20,000 nucleotides of DNA, taken from NCBI GenBank assembly GCA_010015585.1, contig ML975149.1; one strand, 5' to 3'. Each line of letters starts with the position of its first letter. Positions within the stretch are counted from its first letter, which is position 1. The notes beneath the pieces are model-generated. The model ran no database searches. It was given only the letters and a program-made list of their open reading frames with translations, and was not told where the DNA came from. Source of the DNA: Eremomyces bilateralis CBS 781.70 (Eukaryota). Both the position numbers and the translations under genes were made by a program. Of the stretch, positions 2,191 through 20,000 are shown piece by piece.

Positions 2191-2689
2191 TATGGGCTAG
2201 GGGATGTCCATGGGATGCATTCATCATTTAGATATACCTGTAGGCATGTAATTATAGGTTGATAGGATAGCGATCACCCTCTCGTACTCAATTTCAAATC
2301 AACCGGTCTACCCGGCTCTTTCATGCTTTCACCTTCAGGACAAGAACTATTGAGTCGAAGCCGTCCAGTAATTGTATGTATTAATATTACGCGTCCCTTG
2401 ACTGACTACCGGAGGCTCGGAAGTCGGAAGTTAGACCACGATTGACTATTAGGGCCGAGGGGCAAGGGCGGTGGGCACACGCCACGTGTGGTTGACAGAG
2501 GCCCGACGTCTAGGGAGGCCTCCGCTGATTGGTCCAACTTCACCGCCATCCATACCTGTACAGAGAGATATCAAACTCGTGCTTTTTGGTCCCAACATCT
2601 TTATTCTTCCTCTTTATCAAGTATTAGCGGACATTGCATTGGATTTCCCTTGTCCAGTCAGACATCCCTTGTCTAAGGAACTAATCATC

Positions 2690-4582
2690 ATGCTTCAAAA
2701 CAAGTGTTTTCTTCCCCTTCGTGCTACAGGACGCGACGCTCTTATCAGTTCGAAAACTGCGTCTCGACCTCTTGTGAGATGGCACGGTTCGCAATTTCTT
2801 GCTTTTCCAAAAAGAAACCTACATTCGTCTCCAGTACATGCGGCATCTCGTCCGAGTCCAGTGTATTTAAAAAAATCTTCGAAAGACCAGAGGGCTGAAA
2901 GCAAGAAAGAGTCAGAAGGCAGTGCAGCGCCGAAAAATAATCCTTTCGGTTGGGGTGCCACGGCTATCTTTGCAGTAGCGACAACGTTAATGGCAGAGTC
3001 GCTTTTAAGGAATCCGCCTGATCGCAGCTCAACACAATCACTAGAGAAGTCCGCTACGGCTAAGTACAGTGTCTCGCCAGACACATTACGCAAGGCGATT
3101 GGACAACTCAAAAAGGACATTGCCGCGGACCGAATCATACGGGATGTCGGAGAGTGCACCAATAAGTCAAGTACCGCATGGTCTCCTGCCCCGGAAGAGA
3201 CGGACTGCCCTTCGTTTATCGTCTACCCCATCTCGACCTTGGAAGTGAGTAAGATAGCGAAGGTATGCCATGAGTTAGGGATCCCCATGCTGCCATACTC
3301 AGGCGGAACCAGCCTTGAAGGAAGCCTGGCAATGACTACCAAAGGTGGTTGCTGCATTGACTTCAAGCTGATGGACCGCGTCATTGGAGTCAATAAAAAG
3401 GATATGGACGTTGTCGTGCAACCGGGAGTCGATTACATGGAATTGAATCAAACGCTCGCGGAACAGAATCTCTTCTTCCCGCCTGACCCGGGCCCAGGCG
3501 CCAAGATCGGTGGCATGATTGCTCAGGGTTGCTCAGGCACAAACGCATACCGATATGGGCCGATGAAGGAGTGGGTCCTTGGACTAACAGTCGTCCTCGC
3601 CGACGGCACAATCATTAAAACCAGACATCGACCGCGCAAATCAAGTGCTGGTTATGATTTGACGCAGCTCATCGTTGGATCCGAGGGTACTCTAGGGATC
3701 GTCACCGAAGCGTCCCTCAAATTGACCAGCAAACCTCAGAACGTTCGCGTTGCGGTCGTTGCATTCCCTTCAATACCAAATGCGGTGGACAGTGCCATCA
3801 AGGTCGTCCAGGAGGATCTCCCAGTAGCGGCATTGGAATTGCTCGACGACTTCACCATGAAGGCCGTCAATGAAGCCGGATACTGCGAGAAGCAGTACGC
3901 TGAAACAGCAACGCTGTTCTTGAAATTCTCCGGGTACTCGGACCGGATGGTTCAAGAGATTATAGGGAAAGTCATGGATATTGCGAAAGCAAACAACTGC
4001 AGCTCATTCGAGATTTCGAAAACGGAACGTGAAGCTAGCGACTTGTGGCAAGCACGTAAAACGGCGTTGTGGAGCGTTCTTGCATTGAGAAGGAAACCAG
4101 AGGACAAATTTTTGAGTTCCGATGCCGCCGTCCCTATCTCGAGACTAGGCGATCTAATTGAAGCGACCCAAGCCGATATCAAGGAATCCGGCGTCCTCGG
4201 ATCTTGTATTGGACACGTTGGAGACGGCAACTTCCATGCTGGCATCCTGTATGACCCCCAGGACGAAAAGATTGCGCGTACCATCATCCAAAATGTCCAG
4301 AGGCGGGCAGTTAAAATGAAGGGAACTGTGTCGGGAGAGCACGGCATCGGTCTGGAAAACCGCGACGCGCTGACGGAAGAGCTGGGACAGCAGAGTATCG
4401 ACACGATGCGAAAGGTCAAGGCGGCACTGGATCCGAAGAATCTGCTCAACCCCGATAAGATATTCCACCAGAAATGGGTCGCGAAAGACAGTTGGATTCC
4501 TTTTTCATCGAGCGCGTCATCCAAAGGATACCAGGATCAAGACATTGTCCAGGATATTAAGTCCACGTTGGGTTGGTCTTGA
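2690..4582 (+). CDS. DLD1: D-lactate dehydrogenase (cytochrome)-like FAD-linked oxidoreductase, mitochondrial precursor (VAO/PCMH family), 630 aa, no intron detected
   Basis: Motifs PYSGGTSLEG, FFPPDPGPGAKIGGM, GCSGTNAYRYG, RPRKSSAGYDLTQLIVGSEGTLG, GHVGDGNFH, GTVSGEHGIG and LLNPDKI. First in-frame ATG is at 2690 (the ORF track starts at a GTG, 2471). The N-terminus is Arg/Ser/Leu-rich like a mitochondrial presequence. The symbol is a family-level call, orthology untested. Confidence 0.88.
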   Translation: MLQNKCFLPLRATGRDALISSKTASRPLVRWHGSQFLAFPKRNLHSSPVHAASRPSPVYLKKSSKDQRAESKKESEGSAAPKNNPFGWGATAIFAVATTLMAESLLRNPPDRSSTQSLEKSATAKYSVSPDTLRKAIGQLKKDIAADRIIRDVGECTNKSSTAWSPAPEETDCPSFIVYPISTLEVSKIAKVCHELGIPMLPYSGGTSLEGSLAMTTKGGCCIDFKLMDRVIGVNKKDMDVVVQPGVDYMELNQTLAEQNLFFPPDPGPGAKIGGMIAQGCSGTNAYRYGPMKEWVLGLTVVLADGTIIKTRHRPRKSSAGYDLTQLIVGSEGTLGIVTEASLKLTSKPQNVRVAVVAFPSIPNAVDSAIKVVQEDLPVAALELLDDFTMKAVNEAGYCEKQYAETATLFLKFSGYSDRMVQEIIGKVMDIAKANNCSSFEISKTEREASDLWQARKTALWSVLALRRKPEDKFLSSDAAVPISRLGDLIEATQADIKESGVLGSCIGHVGDGNFHAGILYDPQDEKIARTIIQNVQRRAVKMKGTVSGEHGIGLENRDALTEELGQQSIDTMRKVKAALDPKNLLNPDKIFHQKWVAKDSWIPFSSSASSKGYQDQDIVQDIKSTLGWS

Positions 4583-4644: not shown

Positions 4645-6714
4645 TCAAAACCCACCGAGGCCTCTGACCCGTTGTACGGCTCCAACCAGCCCTTTGAGCG
4701 AAGCGAATCGGCCAGGATCAGCACCAGTTGCACCTTCGGCCTCTCTTCCTTCTTTATCTCTCCAGATGCCGTCATCCTGGGAAATTCCGTAGATACGGGA
4801 ATCTTCACCTTTGTCAGATATATCAAAGACCAAATGAGGCGAGGACTTACTCTGATTCTTTTCCAACAAGTCCATCCACTCTCGACAAATCTCCTTCGAA
4901 TCAATCATAACGTTGATCTCCTGGCTATGTGCCCAGCTCTGGGTGTCTTGATTCCCGCTCCCGGTAATACCCACTTCTCCGTCGACGATCATGAGTTTGG
5001 TATGGCAACTGCGCTTCTTGTGTCCTGCCCAGATCGGCCGATCTTGATCCGCAGCGACGTACCATTGCACGACTAGTCGCCCTGCAACATCCTCCCCACT
5101 CTCTCTCGCCTTTCTCCTGAGTCTTGCGACTGTTGTCTCATTGACGCCGCCTTGTCCAGGCAGCATCTCTCCGGCGTCGTTGTATCCAAGACAGAGATGA
5201 AGCGTGACTATGATTCCACGTTTCACTGCGTCAAGGATTGCAGGCTGTAGTACACTGGCATTGAGATCGGGTGTTTGGATGAAGATGGAATGGCGGGCAT
5301 TCCGAAACGCGGAGAGCCAGGCCTCGTTCTGAGGAGTGTGGATAGAGGAATTGTTCGGTGCTGCCCATGGATTTCGGTTGACTAATGCCATCGCAACGGG
5401 AGCGTGCGGCTTGTGCAGCTTCAGAGGGAAGAACTGGACAGGGGTGTCATCTGGCAAAGCTGTTTTCACGTCTCCGCCGAAAGGCTCATTTAGGTGATGT
5501 GAAAGCGCGTCGATGGCCGACATTCCCTGCCCTGGTGAAAGCAGTTTCTGTACTGTCCGAACCTCATCCTGGATGCTCTGGGAGAAGCTGAATTCGCGCG
5601 GTGACCGAGCCAACTCATCCGACATCCGCGGCTCCTGCGGCCGGGAAAGGTCGATTTTGAAGTTCTCAGCAAACTTTCCAAATTCCGGATCCTCAAATGT
5701 GGGCGGGCGTTGTGTCGACGCCGGGCGTGTCAGCGTCTCCAGGGGCGGATCGAGAGCTTCATGCCACGAGATAATGAAATTGTCGTAGATAGAATCGACA
5801 ATGTCGCCTTCCAGATGAACCATCATTTCAAAGTTCTCGTTGTTCTGAATATTGTTGCTTCCCACCACCCCGACCTTCCTGTCGACGACTAGGAACTTGG
5901 CGTGGAAGGTGCCCATCGCCGGCCGATGATAATTCATGACTTGCATGGATACGTTCGGGATCTCGCTTGCTGGCGGCAAGTTCAAGCTGGAGTGCGTATA
6001 CTCCCTCTCGGATACCATAGTGTGATTCTGGATGAATTGCTTGAGGTGTCCACGGTCATAGATGATCTTTACGTTCGCCTTCTGTCCACGTTCCCCAGCT
6101 CTTCTTGACAATTCTTTGAGCGCTTCTCGCAGGACATCGCTTGCCCGGGAACCGACCCAGTAATTCGTGGCTAATAAGACTTCACTCTCTGCTCGAGCAA
6201 TAAGGTTCGCGATATGTCTAACGCAATCTAGCATCGTTCCTGCGATTGTCGCCGGCACTACGCCAGTTGCACCCATAAGGCATGGGGAGACACAGCCCAC
6301 ACGAGGGTCTGCGTCAATTGGAAGTAGAGCATCGTGAAAGAGACGCAAAAAGAGCTCGCTCGGTTCGCTATTCTTGAACTTTCCGCATTTTCTTGCCCTT
6401 TCGAGGCCTGCCTTGGTAGCTCTTTCGATCGCTTTAGGTTCCCTTTCGCCAAAAATATGCGGATGCCGCTTGCCAAACAGATCGTTCTGGATTGATCCCG
6501 GCGACCGTGATGGATTTTTTGCAAGCAAAGATGAAATCGACTCGGATTGACATAAGGAAACAATGCGATCTGTCAGAACTTCCGGCATGGCGACGCTCTT
6601 TCTCCACAGTTCAAGATGCCAAAGGTAGACGCCAGTCGCTAAAGCCACAACGAAGGTCAACGAATTGGGAATAGTAAAACTCAGATAGAAGTCATAGAAG
6701 ACTTCGGGGAACAT
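4645..6714 (-). CDS. Phospholipase D/nuclease superfamily protein with two HKD motifs; probable 48-nt intron at 4803-4850
   Basis: HAKFLVVD..GSNN and HTKLMIVD..GSGNQD are two HxKxxxxD(x6)GSxN motifs. Putative intron GTAAGT..CTGAC..AAG (4850 to 4803) splices to KNQNSRIYG. The start is either ATG 6714 (adds a hydrophobic segment) or ATG 6588 (MPEVLTDRIVSLC). Confidence 0.85.
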   Translation of the reverse strand: MFPEVFYDFYLSFTIPNSLTFVVALATGVYLWHLELWRKSVAMPEVLTDRIVSLCQSESISSLLAKNPSRSPGSIQNDLFGKRHPHIFGEREPKAIERATKAGLERARKCGKFKNSEPSELFLRLFHDALLPIDADPRVGCVSPCLMGATGVVPATIAGTMLDCVRHIANLIARAESEVLLATNYWVGSRASDVLREALKELSRRAGERGQKANVKIIYDRGHLKQFIQNHTMVSEREYTHSSLNLPPASEIPNVSMQVMNYHRPAMGTFHAKFLVVDRKVGVVGSNNIQNNENFEMMVHLEGDIVDSIYDNFIISWHEALDPPLETLTRPASTQRPPTFEDPEFGKFAENFKIDLSRPQEPRMSDELARSPREFSFSQSIQDEVRTVQKLLSPGQGMSAIDALSHHLNEPFGGDVKTALPDDTPVQFFPLKLHKPHAPVAMALVNRNPWAAPNNSSIHTPQNEAWLSAFRNARHSIFIQTPDLNASVLQPAILDAVKRGIIVTLHLCLGYNDAGEMLPGQGGVNETTVARLRRKARESGEDVAGRLVVQWYVAADQDRPIWAGHKKRSCHTKLMIVDGEVGITGSGNQDTQSWAHSQEINVMIDSKEICREWMDLLEKNQSKSSPHLVFDISDKGEDSRIYGISQDDGIWRDKEGREAEGATGADPGRFASLKGLVGAVQRVRGLGGF

Positions 6715-7098
6715 ATTGCCACGAAATTGATATAGAAGAGATCAGTGACAGGAATGAACCGGCACGAGGGTAGTGGTAGCTCTGCTGGCTTCCAAGACGC
6801 ATGATATCTGCCACTCTGGGAAAGCTGGGCATCGAGTCTGGGCAGGATGATTGACCTACTTTGTTCCAGACCTAAGCAAACCAAGAAATTATTCGAGTAA
6901 TATGGGTATCTAATACTGGTATTAATGGACTCTCTTGGAGATGACGTTGAACGCGTGGTGGCAGACGTGACAAAACGTCTCCGTCTGGTATGACGTCGAC
7001 TTCCTGATACGGCTAGACTGGCGCCTCGGGAACGACTTCAGATTTACAAACATCCAGCATCTCCCCAACTAAACCTCAAGCGTCCGATTGTCAATTTC

Positions 7099-7827: not shown

Positions 7828-8099
7828 ATCATGCCCGTTCCCTACACCCACGACAGCCGCGTCTGACCGTCATCTTTCGAGTCCGCTTCGACGCCGTCCC
7901 GCTCGACCCGCAGCCGCACTACTACCTCGTGCCCATTCTCTACCGCCCACGACAGCGGCGTCTGACCGTCACTGTCCTTTGAGTCCGCTTCGACGTCGAC
8001 CCGTTCGACCAGGAGCCGTACCGCTGCCTCGTGCCCATTCGCTGCCGCCCACGACAGCGGCGTCCGACCGTAACTATCCTTCGAGTCCGCTTCGATGTC
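7828..8099 (-). repeat. Tandem ~102-bp (34-aa) ankyrin-repeat units, about 2.7 copies, highly similar at DNA level
   Basis: Repeated GAAGCGGACTCRAARGA..GGTCRGACGCSGCTGTCGTGGG..AAYGGGCAYGA, translating as EADSKD.(Y/D)G(R/Q)TPLSWA..NGHE. Confidence 0.9.
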
Positions 8100-9126
8100 G
8101 AGACCTCCATGTTTGCCTTCCAAAAGCTTAGTTGTCAAGTAAACCTGTCCATGCCTCGCTGTGAATTGCAGTCCGCTCGTTCCTTCCGGGAACTGACTAC
8201 TATAGCCTTCATATTTATAGTCTGACATCGACACAGCTTGTACGGTGGAGTCAACTAAGGTGCTATCGCGGAGAAATTCTAGTGCTAAACAAGAAGTGAT
8301 GATTTCGACATGTCGTATATGTTCGCTCCAGTAATGTGCTGAGTAGTCGTAAATTGCATTCTCGATGAGCCTCTGTTCGAATGCTCTATCATTAGCACAG
8401 CTGCCGCTCCGAAACACGTCGAAAGATAGATACGTTAAGCAGGCTACCGCTATCTCTTGCTGAGCGCTAGTGTTCCATACCAGGCGTATGCGCTCAAAGT
8501 ACTCCTATGTCGTATAGTGCACGAGCCGGATGATGTTGCTCTCCTCGTCTACAGTAACAAGCCCAGCGCAGACGGAGGAAATGTCTTCCACGTCATAAAC
8601 ACTGTCATGGTTCAGAGCTTTATCGCCTGGCTCGATAGCCAGCGCATGGCATAGCTCTCGAGTAGTAAGTGGTCTCTGAGCATATGTTATCCAGAATAAA
8701 GCACGCCTAGCCAGCGAACGGTCATCTTCTAGTTGTCCGTCTATTCGCTTGATTGCCTCTCCATAGGCTTTTTCGAGCGCCGTCGAGCCTTTAGATAGCT
8801 TCTCTAGCGTGAAAATAACACTCTGTTTATTCCTTTTGTCAAGGAGCGAGTCGACGTGAAGACGCGCGAGAAGGAACCTGACCACTCCGTAAGTAAAAAG
8901 GCTTTGCAGTTAAACCGCTAGAGAGCACCTACATGCCATCAACGGCTTCCGCAATCTTGTCCTGAACAAGATGCTGGAGCTCCTCGTCGCGTCGAATGCA
9001 TTTCGGTAGACGTGGTATCCGACCCTCTATAAAACGTCTGACGTCCGAATCACTGGCTCGCACCTCTAGAGTTGGGCTTGATCGAAATCTCTGCGTTACT
9101 TCGGGAATAAATCGGGAGGTAAGCAT
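7828..9126 (-). pseudogene. 5'-truncated NACHT-ankyrin (fungal NLR-like) pseudogene
   Basis: LTSRFIPEV..EVRASDSDVRRFI..AVDGM, then intron 8932 to 8878 (GTAGGT..CAG), then [71 protein letters not shown], then ankyrin repeats. In-frame TAG at 8505-8507 (Q expected), a frameshift and stop in the third repeat at ~7842, and no P-loop-coding sequence upstream of 9126. Confidence 0.88.
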
Positions 9127-9752
9127 ATAGTAATGGTACCAGAGCTATGTTTGGCTTGCAATCGAATGACGGTTCATTTTCAAGGACTAGACAGCTATAT
9201 CCGCTGCATAGCACATGTGACATGTCCTCAATCTGATCGTCGAGAATATAATTTCAGCATTAAAATCGGGCGATCACAACGTGGCGATGGCAGCTTGTAT
9301 TCTTACTCCGTATAATTAGATTCAGGGAACTTGACCTGGAAAATTGCAGGGAAATATGGGGAGTTCTCCAGGTCATTTTCCCTCGAGGCTTCGCTGGAGT
9401 GATAACAATACCTACGCGCTTGCCAAGCACCCCAGAAGCTTTCGGCCAATCAATCCGGCGCTGGTGGTGCTGTGGGCATCTTCCAGCATCGTCTACGGTC
9501 TAGACCGGAAACTCCACGGTTGAAGGGTTTGATAGTTGTTACAAACTTTATTTCAACAGTACAGAAGCAGCTTTGCAGCCCCAAAATTAATGCTTTGGAG
9601 CTTAACAAAAACGCGCTCGAAGACAAGGTTACTCACGAACTTGGAATGATCCGCTGACAACGAGAAGAGTTTGAAAAGATGCAAAATATTCTCATAAAAA
9701 TAATCAAAAGGAAAATCTGAAAAACAAATCTTTGATAGGCTGGGCCTTTCAC

Positions 9753-12055
9753 TTAAGTAGCGCCTCCATTCGCACCATCCCCAGCAAGGGAGTCGAGGAA
9801 ACCCAAGTCTATCCCTGATAGATTCCAATTCATGAACGGCCATTCTGCATCGGGAAGTTGCTCCAAAGACTGCAAAGTTTGTTCGACCCCGTCGAGGCTC
9901 AGTGCTGCTTCGTCAATCTGGGGATATACACCGTCGGTTGCTGTTGGTAACTCCTGACTCGGTACAGCTTCAGTGGGCAATACAGAAATATCATTCGCGG
10001 CTCGGTTGATAAATGATCCCACCTTAGAATGAAGCTGTTCAAGTGCGTCGATCAAGTCCGTAAGCCGTTCTCGAGGGGACATTTGGCCAAGGCATGACAT
10101 TGCCCTCCGATAGTATCTATCATGTGTATCGTAAGAACTCAAGTCGTGCAGTGTGGCTAAAGCTAGGATAAAGCAAGCGGTCTCAAGGAATAATTCGTGA
10201 TTGCAGAGTATCTGAGAGGATCCAAGTCAGTTGAGTTCCTGGAGACTTTCATGATAAAGAGTACCTCAGCCACTGGATGTAATGAGATAACAGTGTCCGC
10301 AAGGACAATGATGGATCGAGCAGCGTCAATGCAACGATCGCAAGCATCTTGCAAAGTCGAGTCGATGGTGAGCATGAGGGACTGGGTTGGTGTCAGGCTC
10401 TCTGAGTCCGTTTGACGTCTAAATTCAAGCGACAGGAGCAGGAAAGGCCTGAAAGTTAAACAGACGATATTGAAGTATTCTGGCATTTGTCAGTAAGAGC
10501 AGCCTAACCGTGTAAAAAGTCATACGTACCGTATGAGAGAACAACGTGCTGTACCAGATTTTCGCTGCTGTTGTGTTCTAGAGGCTTTCCGATAAATATT
10601 TCTAGATCTGATTCCAAAATTCGCCGGAGTGATTGCAAATCATGAAAAATCTTATAGGCCGTCTTGAGATCAGCGTTGATAGTGGTATGGCAACACCGAT
10701 AGAGTTTGTGTATTTCTTGCATCACTTCACACATTCTGAATAATGCCCAGGTGAATGTGCCGTGTTCCGGGATAGAAAAATCCATATCGCTTATCTGGAG
10801 CAATATGGGCCATCCAAATGTGAGAGAAACAAGGCTGCTAAAGTGTAAGCAACCCATTTTGCTGCCATGCGCCACAACTTTGACTTTAGCACCACTTACG
10901 TCTCGTAACAATACACGGACCAGAATGTACGGGTCGCTTCTGCGGACTTATGATGTGGTTGCCGATATGACGGGTCTAGTCGATGCAGTCCGGCTGCCAG
11001 TGACTTTTGTAGACTGCGGCCTAGAATGAGGTAGGCAACCTGTGGACTGCCCCAAATGAACTCACAATGAGCGTAAACAGTAGCTTGTCAGTTGGAGACG
11101 AGCATCAGGCGGGAGATTGACTTATCAGCAATAATTCTGTTTGGACGACCTCCATGTTGATGTCATAAAGTGATTTTTCTGATTCTTTTAATGCTTTCTC
11201 GAAGAGAATTTTCCTCCATCCGTCATGTTTGTAGCCTGCTCCAATCGCCAAAGTGGCAAGGACAAGTGCTTTTTCGGAGCTCCCGACAACATTCGATGGA
11301 TTTGGGTCATAGAGACGTAGGAGGAGAGGCTGCACAGTCTCAGCAGATACCAATGGAAAAAGGTGATGAACTGTCCTGAGATAGACGTCTTGAAAGCCTT
11401 TGGCAAGGTCGTACTGAAGGAATGCAACATCCGCATCTTGCGCACTGGGTATAGATCTGAAGGCTCTCTCGCGATAATTGAAAGCATCCAGACTCTCATT
11501 GTCATCATAGAACTGCCCCGGGCAAACCAATGGGCTTGAATCTCGAATACTTGGAAGTTCAAGGTGCGCATGAAGATGGCGGAGTAATGAAAAGCTAGAC
11601 AATGGACCGTACAAGAGTTCCGAAATGCACAGGGAGGAATCTCGAGAAACGTCTGTAACACGGATGCTGTTGAAAATATGCCTACGGGGGAGAGTTGATT
11701 GAATCTGTTCCATGCCGATCTCGTTCAATCCTGATGCTTGCTGTTCGATTGAAATACCGCTGGTGGTCGCATGGGATCTTGAATTCAGAGTTCCGTGTTC
11801 CAAGTCGGCATCTTCGGAGGTAACCTGGCGTGAATTTCTTGTTCTTGTAACCACCCGGTACCAGCATGTTGCACCGCGCCTTTGACAAGTGATGCATGGA
11901 CTCTCGCCACTGCAGCGCTGCTTTCTCCGACGACATTCTTCGCATGCTTTTGAGGTGTTCTTTGCATGAGACCCTATTATGTCTCATTCAGTCTACTCTG
12001 AAGCATCAGGTGATCTAGTAGACTTACTAGCGGCTTTGGTCATGATGGTGGCCAT
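9753..12055 (-). CDS. Zn(II)2Cys6 transcription factor with fungal-specific (Fungal_trans/MHR) domain, ~675 aa, 6 exons
   Basis: Exons 12055-12028, 11973-11126, 11072-10900, 10834-10530, 10479-10265, 10211-9753 (total 2028 nt, phases consistent). Zinc cluster ACEECRRRKQRCSGESPCITCQRRGATC is not shown in the ORF track. Middle-homology motifs YLRTVHHLFPLV, AAGLHR, RTFWSVYCYE, SLTFGWP and LTFRPFL. Intron 2 (11125-11073) is modelled as AT-AC. An alternative in-frame ATG lies at 12067. Confidence 0.87.
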
Positions 12056-12146
12056 GGTGTGTGTCATGGACCGTTAGGGGCTAATAATGGTGTCGGGATT
12101 ATAGATTCGGGGGAAATATCAAGATGTTGAACTTTTATTTCGCCAT

Positions 12147-12166
12147 CGGAATAAACATTATTTCCG
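12147..12166. promoter_or_regulatory. Inverted CGG half-site pair (CGGAATA-N5-TATTTCCG) upstream of the TF gene; candidate Zn2Cys6 site
   Basis: About 90-110 bp upstream of the TF ATG; same half-site as the cluster upstream of the ABC gene. Zn2Cys6 proteins typically bind CGG triplets. Confidence 0.45.
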
Positions 12167-12225
12167 ATGACGTGGTTGGGTGCCGGGCCATGTTCCGGTA
12201 GAGTAATTGATTGATTGGGTCGGCC

Positions 12226-12541
12226 CAGGGTGGCTATTTAGGCATTCCGGCTTTGTCTCCACTTTTGAGTGATTTGGCCTGGCTCATTTCCACTTTGTAC
12301 CATGGTTGTGTCTACCACCTTACCAAATCGCTTCCTCTTACCAGTGAGTTACCACTGCTATTTTCACAGTAGAAATATGGGATTGCGAGCAATTGATTAT
12401 CAGAAACCAAGAAGTTATGGTAGGCTAGAGGTGAAAACTGTTTGGCTTGTACCGGCTTGCAGGCCGAGTCAATTATAAGCCGTTAATTCAGGGTCCAAAT
12501 ACGGTTTTACACAAGCCGATCCGGCTTAAATAGCCACCCTG
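12226..12541. mobile_element. Non-autonomous MITE, probably hAT superfamily (316 bp)
   Basis: Perfect 15-bp TIRs CAGGGTGGCTATTTA (12226-12240) and TAAATAGCCACCCTG (12527-12541), 17/18 when extended. 8-bp direct repeat GGTCGGCC at 12218-12225 and 12546-12553. Internal CGGCTT/AAGCCG motifs, no convincing coding capacity. Confidence 0.75.
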
Positions 12542-13772: not shown

Positions 13773-14002
13773 CTCACAGCAGTGAACTTACTACGATCTG
13801 CATCAGTCAGCAGTGTCCTTCCAGGTCCAAGTGGAGACTATATGAGGACGCTGGCTTGAAGAACCTGATCGCGGATGCCACGACCCATCGGATTTATCAA
13901 AGATCGGAGAAACGGGAATAAACAAGCAGGAAGAGTATATAGGAGGCCCGGCATGGCTGAGTCTCTTGAGCTGTATGTTCTCATTCGTCTCGATTTTTGA
14001 AG

Positions 14003-17000
14003 ATGTCGGACCTAACATCATGGCAGGCTGGCCAAAGCAACCCCTCTGGAGGACCTTGGCCAGAGCAGGGCGAGAAGCAAGAAGACGGGTCTCGCTCGGA
14101 ACTAGAGTCATCAGAGGGGCACGACATCCCGTCCAGCTCACCCGACAATGATATCAAGAATGGAAGCTGCTGGACTGGTATCAAGAAGCGCTTGACGGTT
14201 ACCTTTAAGGATCTTTCTATCCTGGTAAATGAGCGCGGAACCGATTATTGCGAAACCTTCGCTTCACGGATCGATCCAAGAGGGATAATCAACGGCATAA
14301 AAGCCAGGAAGCTTCCTCAAAAGGTGAGTGACACAAGAGAGTCTCTTAGTTCTGCTGCTTACGCAAAGAAGCACATCCTTCATCAAGTCACCGGCCAGGT
14401 TCGGCCTGGAGAAATGGTATGTCATTGGTGTCCTTCATCACTGCTTCTGTCCTAATCATGCTGTAGTTGCTTGTTGTTGGTCGCCCGGGATCCGGCTGCA
14501 CCTCTCTACTTCGCATGCTAGCCAATGATCGCGCATCACTCAAGAGCATCCAAGGCGAAGTTCATTTTGGCAACGCGGACCATGTAGAAGCCAAGCAATT
14601 CCGGCATCAAATGATACTCAACAACGAGGATGACATTCACTTTCCCACGCTTTCTGTAGCTCAGACTCTGGAGTTTGCTCTGTGGACTAATGTACCTGAT
14701 TATCGACCAGACGAACTGAAGAAGATTAATCATTACACAAGCAACGCTTCGTCAGATATTCTTGGGTCTCTGGCAATTGGACATACGGCAGACACTCTGG
14801 TCGGGAACGAGTTTGTCAGGGGTGTTTCTGGTGGAGAAAGAAAGCGTGTCTCAATTGCCGAAGTCATGGCAGGGCAGGTAAGATCATCATCCTCTCTTGT
14901 CTTTTATCCCTGGCCAACTTAAATTGCGTAAAGGCACCCGTCCAGTGCTGGGATAATTCAACAAGAGGCCTTGATGCCAGCACAGCCTTGGATTTTGGTC
15001 GTACACTCCGCAGCTCTGCACAGAAGCAAGAGAAAACAGTCATTGCCTCATTCTATCAGACCGGTAATGCATTATATAACCTGTTCGACAAAGTTCTAGT
15101 ACTTTGCGAAGGAAGAGAGATCTACCACGGCCCGCGAGAACTTGCAAAATCATATTTTGAGGACATGGGCTTCATCTGTCCAAAAGGCGGCTCAGTGGCA
15201 GACTTCCTCACCGGGGCGGCGGTTCATACCGAACGCAAAATCAAACCTGGCTTCGAGAGCAGCGTTCCAAACACCGCAGATGAGTTTGAACAGAGGTTCA
15301 AACAAAGCAAGGTTTATATCGCCATGATCGAGGACATGGTCGATCCAGCGGCTCTGGAGTACGAAATTGAAGACTTGAAGCAGGCGATGACTCTAGAACG
15401 GCAAAAGTCGCCACTCTTCAGGCAGATTCATAGTGCCTATACGGTCAGTTTGTGGGATCAAACGATCGCTTGCGCTGTGAGGTCGGTCTATTCCAGCTCC
15501 ATATCATATTACTCTGCTGATGTACGACAGATCATTCCAGATCATGTGGGGAGACCGCTGGTCCCTCATAATGAAGGTTGTTTCCGCGCTTGTTCAAGCC
15601 CTGATGACTGGATCCTTGTTCTACAACCTTTCCACAACGAGCAGCTCTGTCTTCCTTCGACCAGGAGCACTCTTTTTTGGAATTCTATACTTCTGCTTGC
15701 AAATGCTTTCCGAAACCACAGCTTCTTTCATGGGCCGACCGATCATCTCTCGTCACAAACGCTTTGGCTTTTACCGACCTACCGCATACTGCATCGCTGC
15801 TGTGCTGGTTGACATTCCGATCGTCTTTACGCAAGTCACAATTTTTACCATTGTTTATTACTTCATGGTTCATTTCCAGGTCTCGGCAGCCAAGTTCTTC
15901 ACATACTGGGTTGTACTCAACGCTATCACGCTCTGCTTCGCGTCCCAGTACAGGGCAATCGGAGCTCTGTTCCGGCATTTTGGGAATGCATCCAAGGTTT
16001 CGGGGACAATTACAATGATCATGATGATTTACTCCGGTATGTGCACCTTCTACGGGCTGATCCCGAATGACGCTAAGTTTAAACTCCAGGTTATTTGATA
16101 CCATTTACGTCTATGCATGTATGGTTCCGTTGGATATTCTGGATCAATCCTGCTTCATATGCCTTCGAGTCACTCATGGGGAACGAATGGTCCGGCTTGC
16201 AGCTTTCCTGCCAGTCTCCACAGTATCTACCATACGGTGCCAGCTACGATAATGATCACTATCGGGCATGCAGTGTTATTGGATCCAACGGAAACACTAT
16301 CTCTGGAGACGCATATATCGCTTCCCAATACAACTTCTCCAGGTATCATGTTTGGAGAGGTTTTGGCGTCATAATCGGTTTCTGGATTTTCTTTGCTTGT
16401 CTTACTGCAATCGGCTTCGAAATGGCAGACAGCACCGGTGGCTCCGCTAAACTCTTATTCAAGCGCGGTAGCAATCCCAGCATTGACGGAGACGTACTTG
16501 ACGAAGAGAAGACGGTCGTCAGTACACAAACGACAGCGTCTACGGCAGGCCCTGCGACCGAAGAACTGAACAATTCCAGTCACCAATCGATTTTCACTTG
16601 GAAGGATCTTGACTACTTTGTCAACGTTCATGGGGACGAGAAACAACTTCTCCAGAAAATTTCGGGCTTCGCTAGGCCTGGTCAGCTAGTTGCTTTGATG
16701 GGCACATCTGGCGCTGGGAAGACAACGCTTATGGACGTCCTGGCTCAACGAAAGGATGCAGGGAGAATCGAAGGCTCTATTCATGTCAATGGAAAGCCAC
16801 AAGATATTACCTTTCAGAGGACCACCGGATACTGCGAGCAAATGGATGTCCACGAATCCACATCCACAGTTCGAGAGTCCCTGTTATTCTCAGCTCGATT
16901 GCGACAAGAGCACAGCATCCCGGATCAGGAGAAGGTAGACTACGTGGAGGAAATCATCGACCTTCTTGAGCTCCGCAAAATTAAAGACGCAATTGTTGGA

Positions 17001-18602
17001 GAACCTGGAGCTGGCCTCAATATCGAGCAACGGAAACGCCTGACTCTGGGTGTTGAGCTTGTCGCAAAGCCTCGACTTCTCTTCCTGGATGAGCCCACCA
17101 GTGGCTTAGACGGTCAGAGCGCATTCAACATTGTCCGGTTCATGCGAAAACTTGCAGACAGTGGACAGGTAGTAATTTGCACCGTTCATCAACCATCAGC
17201 AGCCCTTTTTGATGCCTTCGACTCCCTCTTGTTATTGGCTAAAGGTGGTCGAACCACGTATTTTGGCAAGACTGGAGAGAACTCGACACATTTACTGGAT
17301 TACTTTGCCAGGAATGGCGCAACGTGCGACCCCGATGCGAATCCAGCGGAGCATATCATTGATGTGGTTCAAGGTCGCAGTACCACAGGAAAGGACTGGG
17401 TTCAGATCTGGGAAGAATCACCTGAACGGCAGAATATGATGCAAGAACTTGAAAGCTTGGATAGAGAAGCTTTGCAGCACGCGCCCATTATTGATGAAGA
17501 AAGCCAACACGATCAGGTCCATGACTTTGCGACACCCATCCCATATCAGATTCGTCTGGTAACCATACGCCAGTCAATTGCCTTGTGGCGAAATCCAGAC
17601 TATGTTTGGAACAAGATTCACATGCATATTTTGCAGGCGCTCTTTGCTGGATTCACATTCTGGATGATTGGAGATGGTAGCTTCGACCTCCAACTTAGAC
17701 TAATGGCCGTTTTCAATTTCGTCTTCGTGGCACCAGGCATGATCAACCAGTTGCAACCTCTATTCTTGCGAAACAGAGACGTATTTGAGACCCGGGAGAA
17801 GAAGGTAGTCACCCGTCCGAATCACAAAATGGAACGCTTACTGATCCTCTACTGTAGTCCAAAACATACCACTGGCTCGCTTTCATTGTTGCTGAATGCG
17901 TCTCGGAAATTCCATGGTTGATCATCTGCGGCACGGTTTACTTCGCATGCTGGTACTTTACAGCAGGCTTCCCTGTACAAGCGTCAATATCGGGTCAAAT
18001 CTACGTACAAATGCTTCGTAAGAACTTCGGCGCGTCTAAACTGAGGTCTTGCTAACTCGATTCCAGTATACGAATTCCTCTATACTGCCATTGGCCAAGC
18101 CATTGCTACCTACTCTCCGAATGCCTACTTTGCCTCCCTCCTGAATCCTGTCATCATTGGAGCAGTTCTCATCAACTTCTGCGGCGTCGTAGTGCCATAC
18201 GATCAGATTGTCGTATTTTGGCGTTACTGGATCTACTATCTCAACCCCTTTAGTTATCTTGTGGGAGGGCTTCTCGCCGCTCTCCTATGGGATGTTCCAG
18301 TTAACTGCAAGGGAAGCGAGCTTACCGATATTCCTCTCCCTTCGGGACAGACCTGTGGGGAATACATGTCGGCGTTCCTGGGTAACAACGCCGGCTACAT
18401 TGTGGACGGCAACAGCACATCTTCCTGCCAGTATTGCCCTTACAAGGCTGGAGCAGAGTATGCCCAAACTTTTAATCTCAAGGCCAAATACTACGGCTGG
18501 AGAGACGTGGGTATCACAGCCCTCTTCTGTATTGCGTCGTATGGCTTGGTAGTTCTCATGATGAAGATTAGAACCAAGGCCACGAAGCGATCATCAGATT
18601 AG
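14003..18602 (+). CDS. Full-size PDR/ABCG multidrug ABC transporter (AtrB-like), ~1414 aa, 8 exons
   Basis: Exons 14003-14323, 14369-14416, 14467-14877, 14934-15481, 15531-16036, 16090-17804, 17858-18017, 18067-18602 (4245 nt; all GT-AG introns of 45-56 nt). NBD1 GRPGSGCT, VSGGERKRVSIAE, CWDNSTRGLDA; NBD2 GTSGAGKTT, LNIEQRKRLTLGVEL, FLDEPTSGLD. NBD-TMD-NBD-TMD topology with Cys-containing extracellular loops. Confidence 0.95.
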
Positions 18603-18850: not shown

Positions 18851-19277
18851 ATGGTTAGCCTACTAGTTTCTGTGACCACCAACTCGCTCAACGTGCAGCT
18901 GCAGAACTCGCGGAAATGGTGATAGAAGTATTAAATATCAACTGTCAGAGATCAGAATGTCTCCTGTCCTCCAATTTCCTATCCATGACCCCATATTCCT
19001 AACTATGACAACGCATCATGCATCCCGCGATGTTACCAGCCCCCCATTCTTTGCTTTTTCGCTCGTCTTGAGCAAGTCAAGGTCTCTAGGGCCATGAAAT
19101 GTATACAGAACTTAAATATGGACGTATTCCCGCAGTTTCTATACTCATTAGGATCAAGGTCAATCTATCTATGCTCTTTTGGAATCTAACGGTGTTTTCC
19201 CACTGTATCGCTGCAATGATCACCTGATTGAGCAAAACCGCCATTTATCTCACATCAACGCCAATCTTGTTCTAAAT

Positions 19278-20000
19278 ATGGCTCTCCGCCCAACTAATTC
19301 GCTGGGCCTAGTCCCGTATCTCGATCCGTCAGATTTTGATGGAAATGAGGAGGGAGGTGAGGAGGGAAGTGAGGAGGAAAGTGAGGCTGGAGATAGTGAT
19401 ATGGAGGAGAGCTTTGCGACTGCAGACGAGGAGATTAACGATGAGGTCGACCAAGATATAGAGGACTTACCTGACTCCTTCTTCAACGACTTCCTAAATA
19501 CGATACAGGAGGACTATATCAATCTTTCCGCCCCACCGGTCCAGCCTGATCAAGGCTGGAAAGATATCGACGATGCCTACCAATATCTCCTCCAATACGC
19601 GCGTGATCGGCGTTTCGGTATCCGTAGAGGTAAGACCTTTACGGATAAGTACTGGGATGAGAAGAATCGTGCCTGGTTCGAGTGCGATCGGTCCGGAAAA
19701 CCTCCCAAAATCTCGTCCTTAATCCGCAAGACTGGAAGCTCGAAAACCGGCTGTGGATGGGCGGTTAAGATCAAACTCGACCGTGATACGCGGCGTTGGG
19801 TTATTCATACCATGGTTCTAGGGCATAACCATAACGTTGTCTCCTCGGCATCAGCTCACCGCAGCCACCGCAAATTGACTGTGGAACAGAAGCAGGAAAT
19901 TGACAAGATGACAATGGCTGGATGTACGCCAAAACAGATCTATAACGCCATCCAATCCGGCACAGATTTGATCAGGAGAGATATATATAATCGACGCGAC
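19278..20000 (+). CDS. Mutator-like (MULE) transposase N-terminus with FAR1/WRKY-like DNA-binding domain, partial, runs off the window
   Basis: 241 open codons absent from the ORF track: acidic N-terminal tract, then AYQYLLQYARDRRFGIRRGK..FECDRSG..RKTGSSKTGCGWAVKI..WVI..HNH..SAHRSHR..AGCTPKQI..RDIYN, the C..C..HNH zinc-binding signature of FAR1/MULE transposases. Confidence 0.85.
   Translation, partial: MALRPTNSLGLVPYLDPSDFDGNEEGGEEGSEEESEAGDSDMEESFATADEEINDEVDQDIEDLPDSFFNDFLNTIQEDYINLSAPPVQPDQGWKDIDDAYQYLLQYARDRRFGIRRGKTFTDKYWDEKNRAWFECDRSGKPPKISSLIRKTGSSKTGCGWAVKIKLDRDTRRWVIHTMVLGHNHNVVSSASAHRSHRKLTVEQKQEIDKMTMAGCTPKQIYNAIQSGTDLIRRDIYNRRD

Follow-up and report, generated by a model that had tools for sequence, protein, structure and literature searches.

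The 20,000-nucleotide (nt) stretch of Eremomyces bilateralis CBS 781.70 analyzed here (GenBank assembly GCA_010015585.1, contig ML975149.1), hereafter called the window, carries on its minus strand a gene for a Zn2Cys6, fungal-specific transcription factor whose second intron begins with AT and ends with AC. The intron (11125..11073) is genuinely spliced, and it is very probably a true AT-AC type II (AT-AC II) intron, removed by the major spliceosome. Introns of this kind are already known; the new result is the conservation of one of them, at a single codon, across a whole family of regulators.

Results and discussion

An AT-AC intron is spliced out of a Zn2Cys6 regulator gene

On the minus strand, exon 2 ends at 11126 with the codons CAA ACA GAA TTA TTG CTG (QTELLL), and exon 3 opens at 11072 with GCT CAT TGT GAG (AHCE, followed by F). 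The 53 nt between them, in phase 0, read ATAAGTCAATCTCCCGCCTGATGCTCGTCTCCAACTGACAAGCTACTGTTTAC. They start with the 5' splice site ATAAGT (11120..11125; ATAAGTCA as it stands in the window), which is the U2-type consensus with A at +1, and they end with the 3' splice site TAC (11073..11075), where YAC takes the place of YAG and which the transcript contig described below also places here. A putative branch site, CTGAC (11087..11091), has its branch A at 11088, 15 nt ahead of the last intron base. Were the intron retained, translation would stop at an in-frame TGA (11105..11107), because the open reading frame (ORF) 11105..11983 ends there. An earlier note, made from the letters of this DNA, had described the intron in the same way (53 nt, phase 0, donor, CTGAC, TAC), had likened its length to the 50-65 nt of the other introns of the gene, and had pointed to the TGA met on retention. 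The letters agree on each count, as the four other introns measure 54, 65, 50, and 53 nt and ORF 11105..11983 terminates at 11107..11105.

RNA evidence comes from the public run X1, the one run that a search listed for the gene, which contains 77% of the words sampled from the gene and whose contigs were compared with the window over 9500-12400. One contig (2658 nt, depth 126) aligns to 9500..12086 with 0 mismatches and skips five segments, 10212-10264, 10480-10529, 10835-10899, 11073-11125, and 11974-12027. Four of these gaps are GT..AG on the gene strand, while 11073-11125 is AT..AC (GT..AT on the plus strand). As the contig contains none of the five introns, it derives from spliced RNA, and the orientation of the four canonical introns shows that it runs in the sense direction of the gene. 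The cut between 11126 and 11072 cannot be shifted, there being no letters common to both sides ('both = 0'), which argues against template switching. The earlier note had proposed a search of RNA for precisely this junction, and the transcript contig joins it exactly.

Joined across the five introns, the six exons of the gene come to 2028 nt, or 675 codons, and their translation is identical to P0001, a public hypothetical protein with the source label Eremomyces bilateralis CBS 781.70. The deposited gene model therefore already has the AT-AC junction. P0001 carries precomputed matches to PF00172 and PF04082. In our own search, the translation of exon 2 matches Pfam Zn_clus (PF00172; E = 6.1e-08, 33.1 bits against a cut-off of 21), so the Zn2Cys6 cluster is present; Fungal_trans (PF04082) found no match on single-exon translations and is listed as precomputed for the whole of P0001.

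The signals are those of the major spliceosome

Three traits of the AT-AC II class are found here: the intron is excised in vivo with AT...AC borders, its donor is ATAAGT, and both the U12 donor ATATCCTT and the U12 branch motif TCCTTAAC are absent from it. For U2-type AT-AC introns, a very strong /ATAAGT consensus has been described (PMC5029451), and a donor that follows the U2 consensus apart from A at +1 serves to define AT-AC II introns (PMC1557818, PMC5029451); U12 donors obey the rule RTATCCTT (PMC2846911). E. bilateralis belongs to the Dothideomycetes within the Pezizomycotina (taxonomy look-up), and from the Ascomycota neither minor-spliceosome small nuclear RNAs (snRNAs) nor convincing minor introns have been reported (PMC2396436, PMC10639083). 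The earlier note had taken the intron for a U2-type AT-AC intron. The contig junction, the ATAAGT donor, the missing U12 motifs, and the reports on Ascomycota all speak for that claim, and we infer from them that the major (U2-type) spliceosome removes it.

In the mechanism that we propose, U1 and U6 would recognize the donor through positions +2 to +6 (TAAGT), a perfect match to the fungal consensus, and U2 would pair with the putative branch site CTGAC, 15 nt from the 3' end. Compensation between changes at the two ends of an intron is explained by a contact between its first and last bases. Here A(+1)...C(-1) would substitute for the usual G...G contact of the second catalytic step, so that the two end changes would compensate each other, and the otherwise perfect donor may offset the A at +1.

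ATAAGT...AC recurs at the same codon in homologous loci

Metagenome contigs were scanned with an alignment of 13 truncated relatives, which yielded 18 loci. Their translations in three frames were then searched with two protein profiles, one of residues 235-292 and one of residues 293-349. The junction region is covered in 17 of them; L018 falls short and is left out of the counts. In 17/17 loci, a stretch of 50-77 nt lies between the two protein matches, starting with ATAAGT and ending with AC. The introns comprise 14 distinct sequences, 15 with the window's own, and the 3' ends of these 15 are CAC in seven, TAC in seven, and AAC in one. Near the 3' end stands CTAAC, CTGAC, TTGAC, or ATGAC (CTTAC in L001), at a distance of 11-17 nt in most of the introns and of 22 nt in L002. 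As a control, the next intron of the same loci was delimited by the same method and begins with GT in 17/17 and ends with AG in 16/16 (one locus stops short), with nine donor hexamers. The method thus does not create AT-AC ends, and the invariance of ATAAGT stands out against an ordinary neighboring intron. Whether AT..AC recurs at this codon had been posed as a check in the earlier note, and it does so in every informative locus.

Homologous proteins carry the trace of the intron

With P0001 as the query, 940 proteins reached E <= 1e-3 in an exhaustive HMMER search, and the best 150 representatives were examined; a homologue search with exon 2 for longer proteins returned the gene's own protein only. 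The alignments tend to end at two places in the query, residues 292-297, where intron 2 lies, and residues 349-354, where intron 3 lies. At the junction 292/293, 108 of the 150 representatives are contiguous with no extra residues, 17 stop, 17 have an insertion or deletion (indel), and 8 do not cover the junction. From protein alone, a contiguous representative could equally stem from a gene that lacks the intron, from one with GT-AG ends, or from a well-modeled AT-AC intron, except for 21 that behave as uninterrupted ORFs crossing the junction and ending at the next intron; these 21 hence lack an intron here.

The representatives that stop do so in a telling manner. Their read-through tails begin with I (16) or M (1) and none with V, most of them reading IS, IC, MS, or IR, as ATAAGT, ATATGT, ATGAGT, or ATACGT would encode, whereas a GT intron would give V. 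Among the indel cases, the insertion or misjoin begins with I in at least 9 of 17, which brings the proteins with such an Ile/Met start to at least 26, and three read-through cases have Y or H just ahead of the downstream exon, as NAC would encode. At a phase-0 GT-AG intron after residue 523, used as a control, tails begin with V in 3/3 truncated relatives.

Such tails or misjoins are found in Lasiodiplodia theobromae, Neofusicoccum parvum, and Botryosphaeria dothidea (Dothideomycetes); in Truncatella angustata and Fusarium solani (Sordariomycetes); and in Penicillium oxalicum, P. lagena, another Penicillium species, Aspergillus oryzae, Cladophialophora immunda, and Ascosphaera acerosa (Eurotiomycetes); the class was checked by taxonomy look-up for three of these species. 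In Truncatella, a 302-residue public model runs on as 'ISWFL...', and a second model of 692 residues splices exactly there. Three public models of the Neofusicoccum cluster read 'ALLM/ISLPKPLRQR/YLYIGSA', the slashes marking the edges of the insertion, and an unnamed 695-residue protein of this cluster has the clean junction 'ALLM/AYCEFTVGNPNSSYLYIGSA'. The Botryosphaeria model jumps from just before the junction to far downstream.

The mis-built public models are stubs of ~300 residues, read-throughs of the intron, or products of a wrong acceptor, and re-annotation would give back regulators of full length. Among the relatives' public models mis-built at the AT-AC intron are P0014, P0157, P0158, P0151, P0041, P0083, P0164, P0169, P0114, P0017, P0035, P0089, and P0129. 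The earlier note had expected gene predictors to mis-model the intron. This is borne out by many homologues, with their stubs, read-throughs, and misjoins, but not by the E. bilateralis gene itself, whose 675-residue public model has the junction.

A probably old intron, perhaps lost a few times

To place these states on a phylogeny, a FastTree tree of 151 rows was used, composed of 138 representatives and 13 distinct loci, with four duplicate loci and 12 gappy representatives omitted. On it, the 41 rows in the state 'AT intron' and the 21 rows in the state 'none' require only 4 changes, against a mean of 17.7 after shuffling, with 0 of 500 shuffles as low, and most 'none' rows fall within one 44-row clade. 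This pattern is most simply read as a single old AT-AC intron with a few losses.

We suggest that the intron is old and frozen, with the same codon boundary and the same ATAAGT...YAC ends apparently kept in many paralogues and orthologues. Its carriers span Dothideomycetes, Sordariomycetes, and Eurotiomycetes, and other family members have no intron there. Reversion at a single end would produce GT-AC or AT-AG, which is likely to be poorly spliced, and the easy exits would then be a double change or a clean loss. Poor splicing of single-end revertants would thereby make the AT-AC state stable; the exits observed are intron losses.

Alternative explanations

A different reason for the persistence of the odd ends would be slow or conditional splicing, with the retained form (stop at 11107-11105) acting as a DNA-binding stub that throttles a regulator of the neighboring ABC pump. 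This idea is compatible with removal by the major spliceosome, and we consider it unlikely. A retained intron would indeed cut the protein short behind the zinc cluster, the AT-AC ends are conserved, and a PDR-type ABC transporter gene lies divergent from the transcription-factor gene at ~13970-18602, with an ABC N-terminus also found beside the homologue in L006, L008/L009, and L010. However, retention would not have the same outcome in all relatives, as several homologous introns are in frame and free of stops and their ORFs simply read through (P0114, P0120, P0085, P0017, and P0035). The two-step barrier to reversion is a simpler account of the conservation, and family members without the intron exist (21 rows).

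As to origin, the AT-AC ends could be the fossil of a U12-type intron from a pre-Dikarya ancestor, converted in place to U2 use. After loss of the minor spliceosome, ATATCC would have become ATAAGT and a new CTRAC branch site would have arisen, with the AT-AC ends kept, and the intron would since have been frozen in this transcription-factor family. We regard this as very unlikely, as nothing beyond the AT-AC ends themselves speaks for it. The intron is in phase 0, and the family members that could be named are all Ascomycota, the deepest of them being Pezizomycetes and Saccharomycotina. If it were true, the intron would be one of the rare remnants that minor introns have left in that phylum.

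It is highly improbable that a nearby canonical GT/GC-AG pair provides the main splice, with the AT-AC form being minor. The earlier note had named a 38-nt GTCAAT..ACAAG intron as the sole canonical alternative, but ten in-frame, stop-free GT/GC..AG pairs exist near the junction, this one among them, and contigs can drop rare or alternative forms. All ten have poor donors and would insert or remove conserved residues, and none is used in the contig. The only contig on the gene uses the AT-AC junction, at a depth of 126, and the 108 of 150 relatives that are free of gaps and insertions fit this same junction. None of the observations that the earlier note said would count against an AT-AC intron is seen: a spliced product exists, no canonical junction appears in the contig, and homologues align without the extra residues ITTVY.

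Still less credible, and in our view exceedingly improbable, is an artefact, in which the true intron is GT-AG and the genome assembly is in error at both ends, or in which the contig junction stems from template switching or mis-assembly. The contig is a single one from a single run, and the intron ends are those of the genome assembly. Yet both assembly errors would need to hit exactly the first and the last intron base, and template switching needs a repeat, of which there is none at the cut. The same ATAAGT...AC is found in all 17 independent metagenome loci, and public models and unnamed proteins of other species share the junction independently.

That the intron is instead of the U12 type, and removed by a minor spliceosome, is extremely unlikely. 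The donor ATAAGT agrees with the U12 donor ATATCC(TT) at positions 1-3 only, and ATAAGT is present in all 17 homologous loci as well. U12 branch sites usually lie ~10-26 nt from the 3' splice site. In the window intron, TCTCCAAC, 18 nt before the 3' end, fits the motif TCCTTAAC at 5/8, which is the best match there, and the 15 introns mostly reach 4-6/8, the single 7/8 (L001) sitting 31 nt away. The branch sites are instead of the fungal CTRAC type. AT-AC ends do mostly mark U12-type introns in animals and plants (PMC7072748), but in Ascomycota neither minor snRNAs nor minor introns have been found (PMC2396436, PMC10639083). Non-spliceosomal excision, whether HAC1-type or self-splicing, was rejected in view of the standard donor and branch signals (the RNA was not folded).

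Several points weigh against an AT-AC II intron of the major spliceosome, or against its deep conservation. The RNA evidence is one assembled contig from one run that is labeled RNA as a guess and whose RNA nature is deduced from the clean removal of five introns; contigs are blind to minor isoforms, intron retention, and splicing efficiency; and the end bases of the intron are known from the genome assembly alone. That U11, U12, U4atac, and U6atac are absent from this species is drawn from papers about the phylum. In the 17 loci, the intron ends were placed by protein-profile matches, not by RNA, and the loci were found with a query of intron-truncated relatives, which makes them a biased sample of the family. 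All 17 lie in two subclades, neither of them the window's own, which is represented by protein tails only, and a tail 'IS' cannot separate ATAAGT from ATATCC. The state is unassigned in 89 of the 138 representatives in the tree, some of which could hide GT-AG introns at this site. The tree itself was built quickly with FastTree, many of its forks are weak, and as it is unrooted, gain of the intron is indistinguishable from its loss.

Comparison with known AT-AC introns

The AT-AC II class was defined in the SpliceRack study, which lists 24 such introns among ~610,000 in five model species (PMC1557818). It also describes AT-AC II borders in animals, e.g., in human SCN4A/SCN5A, that are conserved from human to pufferfish (PMC1557818). 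With these animal introns (Sheth et al. 2006), the E. bilateralis intron shares the AT...AC ends, the ATAAGT donor, the rarity, and the conservation of borders over long range. It differs in being short (53 nt) and fungal, in placing its CTRAC branch site near the 3' end, in coming from a phylum reported to be without a minor spliceosome, and in being common to many paralogues of one transcription-factor family. Whereas the spliceosome dependence of the SCN4A/SCN5A introns was demonstrated by experiment, a dependence of the E. bilateralis intron on the U1, U2, U4, and U6 particles, and not on U11, U12, U4atac, and U6atac, is predicted from its signals and from the papers on its phylum. U12-type AT-AC introns have the same terminal dinucleotides, AT and AC, but the intron described here has neither their ATATCCTT donor nor their TCCTTAAC branch site, and its phylum is reported to lack U11, U12, U4atac, and U6atac.

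Two precedents come from Saccharomyces cerevisiae, an ascomycete without a minor spliceosome. An engineered AT-AC actin intron was spliced there (Parker and Siliciano 1993, cited in PMC5029451), and a nested AT-AC intron of RPL30, which is non-coding and whose donor does not resemble ATAAGT, is removed from 1-2% of transcripts (PMC5029451). The likeness is that such an ascomycete removes an AT-AC intron and tolerates the paired change of first and last base. In contrast to RPL30, the E. bilateralis AT-AC intron forms a constitutive coding junction with a perfect ATAAGT donor, and it is conserved.

In filamentous fungi, RNA sequencing (RNA-seq) has given AT-AC junctions in 2 genes of Fusarium graminearum (PMC3577648) and 69 AT-AC junctions in Trichoderma longibrachiatum (PMC4324775), a cross-kingdom survey also counts AT-AC junctions (PMC7072748), and fungal xylanase genes have been hypothesized to hold AT-AC II introns (PMC1557818). 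These surveys likewise find RNA-supported AT-AC junctions at low frequency in Pezizomycotina. They report counts or single genes, and in the portions consulted none describes the conservation of an AT-AC intron at one codon across a family and several classes. In a literature search, no account turned up of an AT-AC intron shared throughout a fungal gene family, Zn2Cys6 genes included; papers mentioning both AT-AC and Zn2Cys6 were, apart from PMC3577648 and judged by title and abstract, chance word matches. Supplement file 4 of PMC3577648 gives an RNA-supported 52-nt AT-AC intron in FGSG_10073 of F. graminearum, a gene that could be a relative; a search by that gene name found no paper.

Significance

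The very rare AT-AC II class is here supported by RNA in a filamentous ascomycete, and its codon position is conserved, and its ATAAGT donor invariant, in a Zn2Cys6 regulator family across at least three classes of Pezizomycotina. The family offers a natural series for studying the tolerance of the major spliceosome for an A...C pair and the need for an otherwise perfect donor, as well as the lock-in of an intron, for which loss is seen and reversion is not. There is also a practical side. In Neofusicoccum, Lasiodiplodia, Botryosphaeria, Aspergillus oryzae, Penicillium, Fusarium solani, and others, the public models are zinc-cluster stubs or mis-spliced, and annotation pipelines that permit ATAAGT...YAC at this position would repair a whole set of transcription-factor models.

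Structure of the gene

The gene lies on the minus strand and has six exons, running from an ATG at 12055 to a stop codon at 9753-9755. Exon 1 (12028..12055) is placed by the contig pieces and by the identity of the exon-model translation to P0001; it is followed by intron 1 (11974..12027; GT-AG, 54 nt), which is a gap in the contig with matching sequence signals. Exon 2 (11126..11973), supported by Pfam and a contig piece, encodes the Zn2Cys6 cluster and the start of the regulatory domain. Beyond the AT-AC intron 2 (11073..11125), supported by sequence and by an exact gap in the contig, comes exon 3 (10900..11072; AHCEF...GLHR...CYET), for which contig, translation, and family alignment agree. 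The remaining exons 4 (10530..10834) and 5 (10265..10479) are given by contig and translation, and exon 6, in its coding part including the stop codon (9753..10211), by ORF, contig, and translation. They are separated by three GT-AG introns seen in both contig and sequence: intron 3 (10835..10899, 65 nt), intron 4 (10480..10529, 50 nt), and intron 5 (10212..10264, 53 nt, phase 0).

The acceptor of intron 3, at 10835-10843 on the minus strand, is a tandem one (TTTAG/CAG), reading ...CTTTAG CAG/CC with the slash at the splice. The transcript contig takes the distal CAG, giving the 65 nt; use of the proximal TAG would keep the frame and add one residue. At its upstream end, the contig stops matching at 12086, 31 nt upstream of the ATG, and continues in Illumina adapter letters. 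At the other end, it continues past 9500 to lower positions for 322 nt, pointing either to a 3' untranslated region of more than ~570 nt or to overlap with the transcript of a neighboring gene. Upstream of the gene, at 12258-12299, two other X1 contigs (depths ~300 and 57) match 34-42 nt at 90-95% and then diverge, and this intergenic segment probably represents a short repeat.

Neighboring genes

The PDR/CDR-type ABC transporter gene (~13970-18602, plus strand; Pfam) is divergent from the transcription-factor gene. In the metagenome contigs, an ABC N-terminus is found in L006 (4715-5068), L008 (4740-5002), L009 (3160-3422), and L010 (4767-5022), which amount to three distinct loci, and it closely follows the 3' side of the homologue in the same orientation. 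The pairing of transcription factor and ABC transporter recurs, in a different arrangement.

On the other side, ORFs at 7842-8909 belong to an NLR-like gene with a GPI inositol-deacylase winged-helix domain and ankyrin repeats. It is broken by a single in-frame TAG at 8505-8507 on the minus strand (LVHYTT*EYFE). At the interrupted position, Q is usual, and the TAG looks like a C-to-T nonsense change, reflecting either a pseudogene or an error. Two long, uninterrupted ORFs lie farther off, one at 2453-4582 (plus strand) for an FAD-linked oxidase (FAD_binding_4 and FAD-oxidase_C) and one at 4645-6741 (minus strand) for a phospholipase-D-like protein. At the far end, an open frame with a FAR1 DNA-binding domain (19152-20000, plus strand; E = 1.8e-08) runs off the window and looks like a transposase-derived gene.

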